Assembly: GCF_038025025.1 (NCBI RefSeq)
Contig: NW_027117347.1
Span: 124,001 to 188,000, forward strand
Origin: Phyllosticta citribraziliensis
Taxonomy: Eukaryota
Direction: 5' to 3'
Length of the DNA: 64,000 nucleotides
The notes beneath the pieces were generated by a model. The model saw only the letters and a list, made by a program, of their open reading frames with translations. It did not search any database and was not told the DNA's origin. A program made the position numbers and the translations under genes. The first letter of the stretch is position 1, and each line of letters begins with the position of its first letter. This document shows positions 4,369 to 61,257 of the stretch, piece after piece.

Positions 4369-4982
4369 GTTTTGTCGTTTGAAGCCCCGGAAAGGATGCT
4401 AGCGCCGCGGGGATTCTTGGCTGATGTATCAATGCCAATACTGAGTGGGGTCTTGATACTGATCAGTCTCGCTGCTGCCATCAAATTCAAGAGGCAACGC
4501 ATGTGCCGAGTCGTGTTTGGTTCAGAAGAATTTGTCCTGGACTGCTTGTGTCGCTTGACGTCCAATCGACCACTGCGTTCTGACTGGCAACTGCACGCAA
4601 ACCTGGGTCCCGCATATAACAGGAGACGGTTCGCACTTGATGGACTCAGACGAGGTGGGAAGTGGAGCATCCAGGCTGCTCGGACTTGAGGATGGTGTAA
4701 GTGGTGACCCTCTTAAGACTTGTCAAGTTTGTGTCCTGATCAAAGTTAACACTTTCCCGTCCTAAGCCGGAACAGTCTTGTCGTGCCGGCGTCAAAGCTG
4801 CCACCGACAATGTGAAAGTACCAAAACGGATGGCGTGTGAATGCAAAGTGAACAGAGTTGGATAGCGGCCACACAGATATAGTCGTCTTCTTGCTCCACG
4901 CAACCTCCTCTCCACAACACTCTCCGGCGGTCGACCTACCTTGCCACCAACACTCGAAAGTACCCCTTATATACGCCTCAAG

Positions 4983-6129
4983 ATGTCTTCTTCGACTTCG
5001 TCTGCACAGACGCCCTCCTCCGGTGAGCTCATTCAGCTGGCGCAAGCTGGCGCGAACTACCGCCTCGCAAACTTGGACATCGGTGAAGACGTCCATCTCT
5101 TGGTTTCGCCAGAGTGCAACCCCAAGAATCACTCCAAAGGCATCATCACAACCCAGTCAGGCAGCGTCTTCCCTTTCGAACTGGGCCGAAACGCGCCTGC
5201 GGATGGCTCTTCTAGTGCGGTTGAGGGTACAACCGATCAAGGTAAGCAACATTCTCGCAAACACTGACGATTTGCTGACCTCGATTAGGAACAACACTCG
5301 CACGTACGACTGGCAACGCCGACACCGACAGCCGCAATGCAAACTCCAGTGTATATGCACTCTATGCCCAGACGGTGACGTCTTTGGCGACCGGAAGCCC
5401 GTTGCTTCTGTATTTCTCACCCGGGGGTTTCAATCTTGCCTCCGCCGGGTTCACTGTGACCCTGGGCCGGACCGTAAGTTCTCCATGCTCTTTGCCATCC
5501 AATCGCTGACGCAGGCGCTCAAGACTCCAAACCCATTTCGCCGAAAAAGGCCTGCCGTCGTCTCCTTCGCCGACCTTCCCGGAGAGATAAAGAACATGGT
5601 TTACGACTACAGCCTGGTGCCATACGACGATGATAGTCTGTTCATCAAGCCGTCGCCGAGGAACCGTAGGCTCGAAATGATCATGCCTGGAGGCCGACCA
5701 ATCGCACGCAACCTGCTGTGCGTCAACAAGCAGATCCATCGGGAGGCAGCACCATTCCTTTATTCCAAGAACAAGTTCGAGTTCATGTCAATGAGGGCGG
5801 TCTACCTCTTCATGAGGGAGATCGGGGCAACGAATAGAGCCATGGTCAGACACATCATCATCCAGCCGAGCTGGACGCCGACCGGGCTCACCGACGTCCC
5901 AGGCTTTGACTCGCTCGTCGGTGCCACTCGACTAGAGACTTTGACGTTCTCCATGCGCTACACAAGCACAAATGCGAAAAGGTCCCTTCTGCGCGCAGCG
6001 AGGTTCTGGTTTGAGGAGGTGGCCAGGAAAAGGGGCTCCAAGTCGGCCGCAGTTGACTTGATCCGGATCAAGAACCAGTCAGCCGATTTCCTGGACGAAA
6101 TGAGGCAGTTTTTGGAGGAGAACCTGTAG
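4983..6129 (+). CDS. Hypothetical protein with F-box-like (LPxEIKNMVY) motif
   Basis: Three exons join in frame through introns 5242-5288 and 5474-5514. SFADLPGEIKNMVYDYSL...LLCVNKQIHREAAPFLYSKNKFEF is typical of fungal F-box-like/2EXR-like orphans. Confidence 0.7.
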
Positions 6130-26474: not shown

Positions 26475-27169
26475 AAGGCCGCACCTTGCGCTGTCTTCTC
26501 TTGACCGGTCCATCTTCTGGAGGGAATATTGAAAGTGTTCCGCGCAGGAATTGGCCGTTGTTGGGGACCATGCAGCGAGCACTCCCTTTTCTCAACTTCT
26601 TTTATTTTCCTTTCCCTTGTTTTCGCTTTTCATGATACCACGAGACGCAACACGCATTGATGGAGTTGTTTGACATTGGACCAAATACCACTGTTTGTAC
26701 AAGACTGTAAGATAGATAGAGCTGGGGCTGCATTGTCATGACTTATGAGAGATCCCCCCACGAATCTTGGATACAAAAATCATTTTTTCTGAAATTGGCA
26801 CGGGCGGCATTGTTTGATTTGCATGGCTTCTCCCTGGATAACTGCGACAGCTGATGAATGCTCCGTCAGCGCAACTGGTGGTGGACGGACGCAGGCTGCA
26901 TAAGCTGCAGTGTTGTCCGGTTGCTCTGTAAGTACACGCACACCTCTGATCTGTTGCCAGCACTGATGAGGATTGCAGCCAACACTATCACCGCGATGCT
27001 TGGAGCATTCAAGCCCACCGTCGGGTCTCTGGTGTTGCCTGAGGAATTTCCCCGGTTTGGTGTTGAGCCGACCCGCTGAGGAAGTCGCGCCTGCCTCGAC
27101 GTCAACACCCGCCACCACCTCCCACTCCAACACCGTCCCCTCTGCATCGCCGCCTCGTCCTTTGGCCCA

Positions 27170-29097
27170 ATGGACCCGCCAGCCCCATTTGACTCGCTGA
27201 GGGGAGGCGACGTCGGCTCTCCACTCTCTCGCACAGCCCAAGATCGCTCGTCCTTCACGAACGCTCTCAACATGGCCTCGCAGACAGTCGCAGGTTCGTC
27301 TCCCACCGAATCCTCAAGCTCCGCTGACATGCGCAGATGAAGAGAGGCGCCTGGTCGCACAGGTCGTCTCCTCAGCCCAAAAGCTTCCAGCCCTTCGCGC
27401 TGAAAGATTCTCGACCGAGAGAGCCGTTGCACAGTTTTTGCTGGAAGCTCTGTTCAACAGTTCTGGACAATATGGGGCTGTTTGCCAGGATGCCGCGAAA
27501 GAACTTGTTTCCCAAGGCCACATTCGCTTCGAGGCGTCTTTCCAGGAACAAACTCCAGCTCAGGCCCCACAAACTTCTACGATTGAATGCTCCAATGCCG
27601 TCGCCCAGGTTCAGGCTCAGCCGCCTCCCCCCAATGCTCCGGGCAGCAGACCGGTAATCAAAGTCGAAGACCCCGAAGACGGCCCTCTCGATCTCGACAA
27701 TGGTAATCCACCTCACCAACACCAATGCGCATCGCTTACATTCGTAGACGCCGTCAAGAAGTTGTGGGTTCAGAAGGTCGTCTCCAAGTACGAAGAGCTG
27801 GGCTTTTCGGCTCCCGCACGCCACTTCCCTGACAGGTCTGAAGCCCACATCCACGTTCGCAACGCCATGATCGGTAAACTTCATTTACCCGTGTTCAAGT
27901 ATCACGACGGCTGGACGGCCTTCTCGATTCTCTGCCGAGGAGCCTTTGAAGAGCTTGTTCTCAACCGACACATTACCTTCCCAATTGTACCTGTGGAGCA
28001 AACGAGGCAGCCGGCCAAACCCGTCTCCAAACCCTCCCAGAAAAAGAAGGCGTTCACCGCCAAGGACAAACCCTCCAAAGAAGCCGACAAGCTTGCGGGT
28101 AATTTCTCTTGACTCTTGGAAGACCTGTACTGACAGCGAGACAGACGAGTGGATGGAGCGCCTCTTGAACAGTGTTACTTCTCAGCCTCCGCTACCTTCC
28201 CCCCGAACGTTCTTTGACCGAGACGCAGCATTGAACTTTCTAGTCCAGTCAGTGCGTGCCAGGTTCCAGCTCCCCTCTCTCGATAAGAAGACGGAGCAAC
28301 GGTGGGCAACTTTGTGTCAAGCAGCCTTGGACACGCTCAAGGCACAGGGTCACATTGACTTTCCGACAAGGAGGGAGGAGAGAGCGAGCCGTAGAGTGAA
28401 AAAGGCTGCGATCGGACACGAATGCTCCCCAGACGACACCAAATGGGTCGAAGCGTACAAGTCGGGATGGAACGAAGGCCATCAGCGTGGACGTTCAGAA
28501 GGCTACCAGGCCGGTCGGGCGGATGCATACGCAGAAGCAATGCAGCAGCTTCTCCAGAAGCGACCTGTCCATGGCCAGTATGAGCAAGGCACAGGTCATG
28601 CTCGCATTGCGGCAGCCCCCGTTCCTTCGCAGCAGATCGGCAATGGCACACTCGGAGCTCAACATCAGAGTGAGGCGATCAAGCTAGCCTCTGGCCCATT
28701 CATCGCAGGTGTGGGCAGTCGGCAGTCCACGGGTGCGAAGATCTTCAACGACCTTGCCAACACGAATCGGTATCGCTCTCCGGCCCTTGAGTCGCTGTCT
28801 ACTCACAGAGAAAGCCTGTCTCCGTCCCGCCCTCAGCGTCGTCTCGAACCACCGTATCCCAACCATGCCGTCCGGAATGCGATTGGCTTTACTCCCATCA
28901 ACTCTGGACAGGCTCCGTTCGGCCACCCGTCTCCCTCGAGATTCGTCCAGACGCCCCGCGGACTCTCGGTTTTGGCGTCGGGTGCGGAACAGGGAGCGTT
29001 CGAGCGACCTGACTCTACGTCGAGGAAGCGGGCATGGACGGAAATCGACGGCGGTACTCAAGCCAGCCAAGAAATGCAGAGGAAATTCCTGCGTTGA
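27170..29097 (+). CDS. Orphan protein with three copies of an unrecognised ~65-80 aa module, a GxxxG-repeat helix and a C-terminal basic NLS-like signal
   Basis: ATG 27170. Introns 27294-27336, 27703-27747 and 28099-28144 (all GT-AG, phase 1) give a continuous frame to stop 29097. Confidence 0.75.
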
Positions 29098-29718
29098 GAT
29101 GACAGCACCCCTTGGGAAAGGGAATGGTGTCCACGTTTGCGGTTTGATCTCAAGTGTATTGTACCGGTAGCATGGTTCTGATTGGGATGAGGGGCAGGAA
29201 GTGGGTGGTCTGATTGCTGAGCGTGGATGACAGGAGCAGTAAAGCATCAATATCAGAAATCCGAGTATTCTACCGTATGCGATATTCACCTGTCTCAAAT
29301 CGGGCGCAGTTTGCCGGCGACAGGTTGGTGTTTTGTATACATTTGCTTCAGACTTCTTTGAGGGCGGGATGTGTGTGAGAGTATCCAGGGAGCAAATTCT
29401 GAGCACCACTCGCATACAGGCAAGTCAGGTATGGGACAGTCAGACGTTGAAGACAATTCATACCTCATATTCAGTCTGTATGTCGTGTCGAGTTGAAGAA
29501 CGTACTCATCATGCCATCAATCAAGCAAAACGTCGCACATGCGGCCAGAATCATGTAGAAAACTCAGGAACAAAACACTGGAAAGCAAACTGCCAGCAAA
29601 CCCGAACAAGCTCCTTGCACTCCACCACGCACCGCCGACTGCTCAAACTCGAGCCACAAGAGCAAGGAAAACAAGAAAAGCTCAACCACACATGGTCCAT
29701 TCAGGAGATGCGCTACTG

Positions 29719-31068
29719 CTAGAGGCGGTTCCTCTTCTTCGCTTGCGGTTCCGTCTTGATCTCGCCTTCCTCCAACGACACGCTCCTCTTTCGTGCCATG
29801 GATGCCGTTTGCTGGCGGGTTCGGCCCAACGTATTAATTCCTGGAACGGCCGTAGTCTGAGCTTCACCACGAGAGTTGTTGCTGACAGAACTCAGACCTT
29901 CTCCAAGAGGAGGTGGTTCGAGAATTGGGGATCCACGAGGACTCTTGGGGAGCGTGCTGGTCCTCTCAAGTGCGTCGACTGACTCTGCTGCGTCCTCTAC
30001 AGAAAACTCTGAAAGCCCACGGGTGTGTGCAGTGCCAGAGTCCTCAGGTCCCGCTGAGTTGAAATGCTGCCTCAGAACCATTTCGGCTCTCATTTCAGCT
30101 CGTCCCGCGACGCGTCCGGCCTTGAAGCCGTCCGAATATCCGCTTCGACGGGCCTCGTTCACTGCCGCTTTGAACTCAGGTGTGTTTTCCACAGAAACAT
30201 TGACCGGGGGTGTCGGAGCTTCGGGTTTGACTGCGGGTGTCGGAGGGGTTCGTACGTGCTCGGCAGGCCATCGGAGGTGGCCTGCTCTCTCGAGGGCGTT
30301 GAGAGCTAGATCGCAGGCACTGTCGAACGATGACCTTCCTTGATCTCTTGCAGGAGTGAAAATATCAAACTTGTTGAAGACCTTGCTGACCAAGTAGTTC
30401 CTGGCGGAGCCCCGACCGACGAATTTCTTGGGGCGCTGTTTCTTTGGAACGGCAGCAGTGGCAAAGAACTTCTTGACCCAATCGTCTTTGTTGGCTAGGG
30501 ATGTAAGCAAGAATCACCTGGGGTGTCTCGATCGACCTACCTGCGTTCAAGGTTTCAAGGAGGACTTGAACTTCGTCTTCACCAGACTGCTGTCTATCAC
30601 GCAGGCTAGCCGTTGGGTAGCGTTGAACTGGAACCAGGTCCTCCTTCAGAGCGCAAGCTTCGCGTGAGTCCTGAGCATTCTCAAAACTGATGGATCCTCG
30701 AGTCATGAGCTCCTTGATGACATCTTCGCAAAGGATGCTCAAGGCAGCAGTTCTGCCATGGCCCTTGAAGACAGGAATATCGAGCTTCTCCTCAAGAGTG
30801 GCGATGATGTTCCCTTGGACATGCGCCTTGTTCGGAAATCGGCTTGCAGAGTCGCGAGGTAGCTTTTTCGCTGCTTCTTGGTAAGTCGTCAAGGCAAGAC
30901 CAGCCCAATGCTTTCGTACGGCTGTGTATGTCAGTACATGTCAATCAAGAGGCTGGATGGAGCAGAGGCACCTCCGCTCAGGTCGATGCGAACTTCATCA
31001 ACAGGATCCTCCAGTTTGACCTCGACGGAGTCTTCGAGCTTCACGGCAGGCTGCCCGTGTGAAGCCAT
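29719..31068 (-). CDS. Orphan protein paralogous to 27170-29097, with two copies of the module
   Basis: ATG 31068 in ACCATGG context. Phase-1 introns at 30922-30971 and 30495-30540. KLDIPVFKGHGRTAALSILCEDVIKEL aligns with KLHLPVFKYHDGWTAFSILCRGAFEEL. Confidence 0.75.
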
Positions 31069-31405
31069 GGTGAGAGCGGAGTGGAGGTAGTATCATGAGC
31101 TTGCAGAGGACGAGGAGGATGAAAGGGTTTGGAGGGTGTGGGAGAGAGAAGCCTTTCAGGTGGACGGGTGGCAGATGGCAGGCGCCCACACAGGCAGGCG
31201 CGACTTCCCCAGCACGCCGCTCGCCAAACCCACCACCCACAACACCACAACCCTCGACAAAACCCCACAACCTTTGCCTCTCTACGCCGCATCCAACGAA
31301 ACGCGGTACGCTGCTCCCTCGTCCTACGCTGCGCAATTTTGGAGTTCCGCCCGCCGTACCTTTGCTGACTCGACTTTGCAGCAGCTCGCGACCGGTGCAG
31401 CCACG

Positions 31406-32301
31406 ATGCCCCATCGGCAGGATTCCATGGAGCCTGAAGAGGCCCCGTCTCCAACGGCCTCTGGAGGCACCTTTGCCCTTCCGAGGTGAGTCACTTGCCC
31501 AGATCGTCGTGGTAGCAGAGTGCACAGCTTCACGCGGGTGACCGCTCCAACATTCGCTTCCGGTGCAATGACGTCACTGGTGACTGGTACGGTGCATGGG
31601 CACTTTTCGACGCTTTCTGGGCGCGTCATTTGCTGTGCATCGGGCTTCTCGTCTTTATGGCTTGATACTCGTCCAGACAGCCCCTCTCCCCTCCCCTTCC
31701 CTCTCTCTGTCCTTCCCGGCTTTTCAACTTTGTCGATGAAGCTAACTTGGGATAGTTGTTTTTTCACCAATGCCTTCCTCCTTGGTCTCGATGAAGACCA
31801 TACCGTGTCGTCGGGCCCCCTTATGCTCTTCAGCACTGGCAGCGGCAAATGCTCCTCTGTGCCGGCGCCTACCCCTGAGGAAGCCCGCATGCCGGCGCCC
31901 CAGGTCGACGAAGTAGAAGAAGACGCTGCTGAGGAAGAGGACGAGGAAGGCAATGGAGAGGAAGATGAAGAAGCTAAAAACAAGGGGGAGTACCATGACG
32001 CTCTTGTGAGCTGCTCGGCTCGTGTTGATTCGGTGGTGTGGTGGGAAGAGAAGCTGCGTGGCAAGGTCAATCCCAAGCACAAAATCTTCAAGATGGTGCT
32101 CGACATGGCCATCCTGGAAGAGTTCTGGACTCACAGGGGAGCGCCGGCGACATGCGAGTATGCCAACCCAAGTCCCTGCCATCGTCTAACAAACATGTTC
32201 CAACTAACAATCTCTCTAGGGGATGCGGCGAGCTTTCGGAGCAATACTTCGAAGAGGCCCCTGCTCATTTCTTCTGCCCTGCCTGTCTTCCAATGGTCTG
32301 A
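31406..32301 (+). CDS. Hypothetical small acidic protein with C-terminal CxxC..CxxC zinc ribbon
   Basis: Proposed introns 31486-31755 and 32158-32219 give ...DEVEEDAAEEEDEEGNGEEDEE...ATCEGCGELSEQYFEEAPAHFFCPACLPMV*. Confidence 0.5.
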
Positions 32302-59050: not shown

Positions 59051-60525
59051 CCACCCATCACACCGACTCTTCTTCGCCAAACCTACTCTTCATCTCTTCA
59101 TCTCCTCGACGCTGCGACACCAGCCGCGCCCAAGGAAACCAGAAACATCTCACCTGGGCCGACATCATCGACGCGCAAACAAACCGCGCACGCCGACGCG
59201 CGGACGAGCCGACCGACAGGAGTGGCATCGAGGGTTGGCATCGGCGGCCCAACGAGACAAGCCTGGGCCAAGGCTGCTTCGGCTGGGCGATTGCGACGGT
59301 TGGGTTGGGTTGTGCGGTGCTCACACCGCTTTCCGTGTGTAGGCGCAGTGAGTTGGTGCGCTGTGGTTTGAAAGATTTAAGCAAGTGAGAGTCGGGAAAA
59401 GAGGAGAAAATAAGGAACGGAGAGGGGCGTAGGAAAGAAAACGCGAAGGTATTGAATGAGGAAAGACGATTGAACAACGGAAATAATCTTCGGTCTTGAA
59501 CTGCGGCTCTGACAAAGTTCCGCGAGGGCCCGAACGACGGGAATTCAGGACAACCACAGGTCCCTGAAGATTGCAAGCAAAACAACATCCAGGAAAGTTT
59601 GGAAACAGACGGACGGCGAAAGATTTCCTGGACCAGAAAATTCCGCGAGACGCAAGGACGAAAGCAAAAAACCAACGCGAAATCAGGGTTCAAGAGCGGA
59701 AGCAAGACGTGAAACGAGAGGGTAAACTTACCGACGCGAAAGAGGCTCAAGCAAAGACTACGCCCGACCGACCGACGACGCTTTGTCAGACCTCAGACCA
59801 ATTGGACAGGGACAGGAATAGCTCACGTCAGCCTCGAGTCCTGGGCTTCTTGGCGGGGAATACCAACCGCAAGCAAGGCGGACAGCGAATCCCAAGGAAT
59901 CGAGACGAGAATAGCGACGCGAGAGAGAGTCGAGATCGAGAGACGATTCGAAACAAACCGCCGCGCTGCGCCGCGCCAGACAGCACAACGCACGAGAAAT
60001 CCCAAGAGCGCGCCCGCTTCTTTCTTTGTCACAAGCCAGCCGGCAGCGATCGCGCGCAGCTCAAGACCCTGTCATTCACCTCAACTCTGACACCTTGCCA
60101 TAACCCTCTCAATCACACCCACCTCCCCCTATCCGTGCGGCTGAAAGTTGGCTTTGCGCGAAGCTTGCCGCTGTTTCTTCGAATCGGTCGGCCAAGTATT
60201 GCTGCGGCAACCCAGCTCTACCTGCCCAACCCAGAGCCCAGCCCAGAGCCGAACCCGTGTCCCAAGCCAAGGAAGCCAGGCCGAGCCAAGCTCAGGGCAA
60301 GCCGGAGCAAGGTAACCGCCGCCAGGCACGAAACCTTAATTGCTCGCGACGGGATCTGCAGACCCTCTGCGGGAAGTTCGTGTAGTGACGGCAACGGACG
60401 GCAGGGCAAAATACGGTGGTTGTGTTGACGGGTTGGTGCGAGACGCTGGTCAAAGAGATACAAAGAAGAGACGGCACGGAACGGGGCCTGTTGCTGTAGA
60501 AGGACAGCGGAACTGGAAAATTGAA

Positions 60526-61257
60526 ATGACAACGACAAAAACGTTGGAGTTGCGGCAGGTAGGCAGGGCGCCGGGACGGGAAAAGACGGCGGAAGACTCG
60601 CGTCTGTCGTTGCTGGGCCTGCCTGCCGAGATACGCAACCAGATTTGGGAATACGTCTTTCCGACGCACAATACGTCAACATGGCTCTCGCTCCTCCTCA
60701 CCAGCCGCCAGATCCATGCCGAAACGCTTCTCCTGGCATACTCGCGGACTCCGTTTGCGACACCGCTGTGCCGGCCGTCGGCGCTGACGCAACGTCTCAC
60801 GGTGCTCTCGCCGGCACAGGTGCGGGCGATTCGAAGCCTGACGTTTACGTACGCGCCGCGGACGGCGGCCAGGTCGTGGGATGGCGATTGGCGGCCGCTG
60901 CTCTTTCCCGTGTACGTGCAATGTCGCAAGTTGTTGTGGGAGGCGGTGCGGCTGCTGCCAGGGGTGCGGAGCGTCAGGTTTGTCTTGGATGGAGGCACGC
61001 AAGGGGGGGCAGCAGGGGGTGAGGGGGAGGGGGCCAAGGGGCCGAGCAGACGGCGGACGGTTGGAGGGACCAAATTCTTCTTCGACACGGTGATTGGGGT
61101 GGGGTTGACGGAGAGGAGCGGGCGAGGCGAGAGGCACGCGTGGGACGAGCGGTGGAGCGTCCTGCCAGGGGAAGAGGGCGACGAGAGAGCCGTGTGGCTG
61201 GTCGAGGGCGAGCGGTGGGTACGGGTCGAGGTCGCCCGGTTGCCGCTGGGAGGTTGA
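60526..61257 (+). CDS. Hypothetical protein with F-box-like motif
   Basis: RLSLLGLPAEIRNQIWEYVF...LLLTSRQIHAETLLLAYSRTPF. Start codon uncertain. Confidence 0.7.
   Translation: MTTTKTLELRQVGRAPGREKTAEDSRLSLLGLPAEIRNQIWEYVFPTHNTSTWLSLLLTSRQIHAETLLLAYSRTPFATPLCRPSALTQRLTVLSPAQVRAIRSLTFTYAPRTAARSWDGDWRPLLFPVYVQCRKLLWEAVRLLPGVRSVRFVLDGGTQGGAAGGEGEGAKGPSRRRTVGGTKFFFDTVIGVGLTERSGRGERHAWDERWSVLPGEEGDERAVWLVEGERWVRVEVARLPLGG

Follow-up and report, generated by a model that had tools for sequence, protein, structure and literature searches.

Genus-unique orthogroups are a familiar finding in Phyllosticta, the genus of the citrus black spot fungus and of close endophytes: passages of PMC9073689 count 3,764 of them, and orphans mostly lack known domains according to part of PMC6965161. 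Glycine-repeat helices are better described, with PMC2674601 giving the form AxxxG(xxxG)mxxxA for FliH and portions of PMC4523923 describing deca-GX3 motifs as required for the pairing of Yae1 with Lto1. Here we analyzed a 64,000-nucleotide window from the genome of the citrus-leaf fungus Phyllosticta citribraziliensis (contig NW_027117347.1, positions 124,001 to 188,000), in which two convergent genes, A and B, are built from a repeated domain. Sequence comparisons confirm A and B as old, real paralogs; the domain appears undescribed, and its family is so far restricted to Phyllosticta.

Two convergent genes share a repeated, exon-delimited module

Gene A lies on the plus strand at 27170..29097 (exons 27170-27293, 27337-27702, 27748-28098, and 28145-29097; 597 aa) and gene B on the minus strand at 29719..31068 (exons 31068-30972, 30921-30541, and 30494-29719; 417 aa). 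Both have open spliced frames, and the whole proteins align over 305 columns with 25% identity (BLASTP E 3e-25). An earlier reading of this DNA, hereafter the original prediction, assigned three copies of one module to A and two to B, and comparison against shuffles bore this out. When the ten module pairs were scored against 5000 shuffles, none reached the score of five pairs: A2-B1 (z-score 19.9), A3-B2 (13.4), A1-B1 (11.2), A1-A3 (9.3), and A2-A3 (8.4). Two further pairs were reached by 4-7 shuffles, and the other three were weak (51, 124, and 246 shuffles).

A tree of 20 family modules, from which the near-duplicates P0009, P0014, and P0016 were excluded, clustered by type (support 99/97 for type 0, 92/91 for type 2, and 85/81 for type 1). 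The short, A-specific module A1 (27339..27539, +) belongs to type 0, grouping with copies from P0005 and P0006; the family profile matched it with an independent E-value of 1.9e-15, the A1 row being itself part of that profile. Type 1 comprises A2 (27750..27989, +) and B1 (30671..30919, −), and type 2 comprises A3 (28147..28371, +) and B2 (30262..30492, −). Given the pairing of A2 with B1 and of A3 with B2, B corresponds to A minus its first module.

A six-frame search of the window located the predicted end motif at five places, one at each module (0.007 expected, but the motif had been fitted to these five). Across the family it holds less strictly, its exact form fitting only 8 of the 20 modules: the five here and three of the closest ortholog. 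The conserved family columns are W, F, A, P, L, C, A, L, L, G, I, and F. As also predicted, the modules are delimited by exons: all five coding introns of A and B are in phase 1, each 2-6 codons ahead of the module's conserved Trp position. Every module exon carries the module and its downstream linker, so that each repeat unit comprises an intron, a module, and a linker. Phase 1 introns flanking each unit are the pattern expected from symmetric exon duplication.

Transcript-like contigs and the integrity of gene B

Splicing was assessed in contigs of runs X1 and X2; none of the four listed runs is registered as RNA, yet these contigs skip GT..AG introns and are referred to here as RNA-type. 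The predicted exon joins were present for A introns 1-3 (X1 contains GT..AG joints for all three and X2 for the third) and for B intron 2 (X1 and X2), but not for B intron 1 (30922-30971, weak donor GTGCCT). This intron is retained in the spanning X1 contig, whose 6133 nt equal the span minus six other introns (two joints are not displayed). Because that contig is unstranded and extends into the tail of the next gene, it may represent read-through.

On the retention of intron 1 behind its weak donor rests the proposal that B is a copy in decay or mostly truncated, whose main product would begin at Met105, without module 1, or would not be made; a public model of a truncated B form, P0002 (310 aa), begins at exactly this residue, and no ortholog of B was found. 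Besides the possible read-through, several observations argue otherwise. Intron 1 leaves an open frame, has a good branch site and acceptor, and takes the same position relative to the DL motif as A intron 2, while a second public model, the 417-aa P0004, splices it out and is identical to our B model. The module-1 exon is open, keeps its core residues, and has a predicted fold with a predicted local distance difference test (pLDDT) score near 90, despite saturated synonymous sites. We regard decay of B as improbable.

B intron 2 has two acceptors 9 nt apart, 30486 and 30495 (−). RNA-type contigs use 30495 and P0002 uses 30486, the position matching A intron 3. P0001 retains an in-frame intron that is spliced; in-frame inserts at the A intron 2 site in P0001, P0008, and P0015 suggest that P. 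capitalensis has this intron as well. Two public gene models are thus to be corrected, P0001 for the kept intron and P0002 for an acceptor 9 nt from the RNA-type one. Between the convergent stops, the gap 29098-29718 has unbroken RNA-type contig cover in X1, and the B contig of X2 ends at 29447; the A and B 3' ends possibly overlap there, an overlap of a kind that contigs are unable to show.

A family confined to Phyllosticta

A profile of the five modules, searched against 1.84 billion representatives, gave ten matches at E ≤ 0.001, of which nine are family members; the tenth, an ankyrin protein, was rejected. The named members come from P. citribraziliensis, P. citrichinensis, P. paracitricarpa, and P. 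capitalensis, in line with the lineage-specific family that had been proposed. Nor did the proposal that no named family applies require revision: Pfam scans gave no family model for the module, and the libraries searched yielded neither a family model nor a matching fold nor a paper for the domain.

A has an ortholog, P0005, that is 84% identical overall and 81-91% identical in the modules. Sequence and profile searches found no B ortholog, B being absent from the sister-species matches, and no further copies of A or B were found in their own genome. Orthologs and one 71% pair aside, paralog modules are 21-52% identical; as the B modules are just 21-33% identical to all others, the A-B split is as old as the deepest in the family. 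The P. capitalensis members have neighboring accessions in three strains (KAK8227075/77, KAK8237061/63, and KAL1384716/17) on contigs of 1.82-1.88 Mb, similar in size to the contigs carrying A and B (1.86-1.89 Mb), from which we infer a local cluster on a matching chromosome. The family may have grown through phase 1-1 exon duplication, which would have given types 1 and 2 early on and type 0 within the A line, and through duplication of genes locally, with one copy inverted.

The module is predicted to resemble a wingless winged helix

Each module is predicted to fold alone as α1-β1-α2-loop-α3-β2, a helix-turn-helix bundle resembling a winged helix without its wing. The models of B1 (pLDDT about 80-93 by block), B2 (mostly 83-94, loop 68), and A3 (80.6) each contain three main helices, arranged as a three-helix bundle with a helix-turn-helix core. 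Strands of 1-2 residues are present between helices 1 and 2 and after helix 3 (bridges 61/112 and 182-183/233-234 in B, and in A3 too). The original prediction had likened the module ending to the recognition helix and wing of a winged-helix fold. The models agree with it in the helix-turn-helix core and short strands but not in the wing: neither the B model nor that of A3 predicts a second strand past helix 3, where a C-terminal β-hairpin would stand, and the sequence becomes a Pro-rich linker.

In Pfam scans of 11 members, no winged-helix family matched at E ≤ 10. It is quite possible, if somewhat short of an even chance, that the module is an independently arisen three-helix bundle whose likeness to winged helices reflects a common arrangement, a view compatible with either an adaptor or a transcription factor role. 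Against independent origin, the structure search with the type-1 module returned a list crowded by winged helices from many unrelated families, with the STN1 C-terminal domain and the cullin WHB domain nearest to B1; the type-2 search did not place STN1 in its top 50. There is also a weak profile match (E 0.2) to eS25, whose fold we take to be winged-helix, and an L-x3-G-x-I ending is typical of a transition from helix 3 to a strand.

Short motifs accompany the modules

The sequence (I/V)K(V/L)EDP, noted earlier ahead of the module in both genes, with acidic residues behind it presumably corresponds to the ψ-K-x-E SUMO-type consensus. Regular-expression searches with a shuffle test placed one such site in A (IKVE, 27657..27668, +), with acidic residues and a short [VL]DL motif after it, and two in B (VKLE twice, 31009..31044, −). 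A site lies within 45 residues ahead of module 1 in six of eight proteins (chance 0.01-0.06 each); as these proteins are related, the count measures conservation rather than six independent trials. Downstream of it, all eight proteins carry a [VIL][DN]L motif, which resembles a SUMO-interacting motif.

Both genes also encode the expected GX3-repeat helix. That of A (28453..28527, +) has five glycines in the form AxxxG(xxxG)4xxxA, and the region is identical to P0005 at 34/34 residues; that of B (30103..30153, −) has four and lies within a predicted helix at residues 265-305 (pLDDT 65-72). Among relatives, P0013 has nine glycines, whereas P0007, P0008, and P0012 have a short helix or none. Matches to Pfam Yae1_N remained below the cut-off (E 0.28-0.69, with 0.69 for A; 10-11 bits against 27.5). 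Finally, the common C-terminal basic signal corresponds, under what we take to be the bipartite nuclear localization signal (NLS) consensus, to NLS-like motifs at 29023..29094 (+) in A and 29722..29793 (−) in B, both located by regular expression; such a motif ends eight of ten family proteins.

A shared element upstream of both genes

A 22-nt element lies 74-95 nt upstream of the A start codon (27075..27096, +), and its copy lies 124-145 nt upstream of that of B (31192..31213, −). The two form an inverted repeat (I1, 95% complementary) matching at 21 of 22 positions. Its exact 17-nt core occurs at only these two sites in the 31-Mb genome, where a search allowing up to two mismatches gave eight matches against six for the control. 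The upstream regions align with a score of 72, compared with 21.9 ± 3.4 for shuffles, the best of 1140 tiles. This conservation, despite third-codon-position agreement of only 0.34 and 0.38 in the paired A/B modules, points to a cis-element under selection or else to a short, recent tract of conversion, and the shared element supports duplication of the whole gene including its promoter.

A leader intron (26928..26978, +; GT..AG joint, X1 only) lies upstream of A or within read-through from the sugar-transporter gene. Behind it, a 27-codon upstream open reading frame (26997-27079, +) stops inside the A copy of the element; the B copy has no stop there.

Possible roles of A and B

Our preferred reading, to which we give not quite an even chance, makes A and B nuclear proteins that serve as adaptors or associate with chromatin, with functional steps that we infer throughout. 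The bipartite NLS would import both proteins into the nucleus, where the modules, two or three per protein and joined by flexible linkers, would dock partner proteins, as STN1 tandem winged helices do, and the always net-basic type-1 module would perhaps add non-specific nucleic-acid contact. The GX3 helix would allow dimers, either self or A with B; SUMO attachment just ahead of module 1 would regulate the proteins, and the common upstream element would co-regulate the genes.

Sequence-specific transcription factors, in which the tandem helix-turn-helix modules would recognize DNA, the GX3 helix would mediate dimerization, and a disordered tail would activate, seem to us unlikely; on this view, the proteins themselves could bind the upstream element. 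The helix-3 region is neutral or acidic in 17 of 20 modules (net charge ≤ 0) with no conserved basic column, the conserved columns being hydrophobic core residues; the missing wing and the low identity of paralog modules also count against DNA reading, a case tempered by type-1 modules being net basic in 8 of 8.

Less probable still is a genetic-conflict or self/non-self locus, such as a poison-antidote spore killer or het-like pair with nuclear products that neutralize each other. The paralogs are tightly linked and deeply diverged, copy number varies between species, B was not found in the sister species, and third-position GC content is low (0.61 in A and 0.56 in B, against 0.66-0.94 in five adjoining genes). 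However, Pfam scans revealed no cell-death, HET, or enzyme domain, the neighbors are ordinary and conserved, no signal of repeat-induced point mutation was detected at the locus, and A and its modules are well conserved in P0005. We hold as very unlikely the composite in which an undescribed wingless winged-helix repeat domain forms a co-regulated, SUMO-controlled, Phyllosticta-specific nuclear heterodimer through a FliH/Yae1-type helix, with paralogs turning over rapidly from conflict (sexual-cycle drive, self/non-self, or genome defense) and binding their own upstream 22-nt element.

Returning to the adaptor reading, dimerization through the GX3 helix would be one more use in eukaryotes for a motif that portions of PMC4523923 describe as confined to Yae1 and Lto1. 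More generally, a domain family without a Pfam model gains a predicted fold and testable motifs, and A and B offer a repeat protein assembled via phase 1-1 exon duplication, with a cis-element retained after synonymous-site saturation.

Neighboring genes

The pair is flanked by a sugar-transporter gene and a kelch-repeat gene, with KAR9, RAD54, and cellobiose dehydrogenase nearby. Gene C (31404-32300, +), divergent from B, is part of a second family and has relatives at G000:C10:214133 (L011, 47%) and C8:1864969 (L012, 35%, internal stop). Its main frame gave nothing above the Pfam cut-off. Removal of an intron near 32166-32220 would give C a terminal C-x2-C-x16-C-x2-C motif, presumably a finger, and L011 ends in Cys motifs that we take to be GATA-like. 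A minus-strand intron within the C frame (32054-32134) is spliced in X1 and X2, and C's own plus-strand introns were not seen removed in X1; this splicing probably belongs to the kelch gene, whose long 3' tail or read-through transcript would run antisense to C in the direction of B. Two weak DUF7730 matches (4852-6126 and 60340-61254, +; E about 1e-5, below the cut-off) lie at opposite ends of the window.

Comparison with known systems

The C-terminal tandem winged helices of STN1, from the CST complex, are among the nearest folds, at 10-12% identity. In contrast to STN1, A and B show no OB fold in the models, no Pfam Stn1 match in any member, and no wing hairpin; long disordered linkers separate their modules, and they are genus-restricted. 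Compared with the cullin/APC2 WHB, RPA32-C, and MCM6-C winged helices, A and B lack a cullin or helicase body and any sequence signal. The A helix resembles FliH/YscL in its AxxxG(xxxG)mxxxA form, with m = 4. Like Yae1-Lto1, A and B are two related proteins that each carry a glycine-repeat helix, although with four or five glycines (nine in P0013) rather than ten and with different other domains. Finally, the family is unannotated, genus-only, and locally duplicated like other taxonomically restricted Phyllosticta orthogroups, but, unlike those, it comes with a defined repeat domain, four conserved motifs, and a fold prediction.
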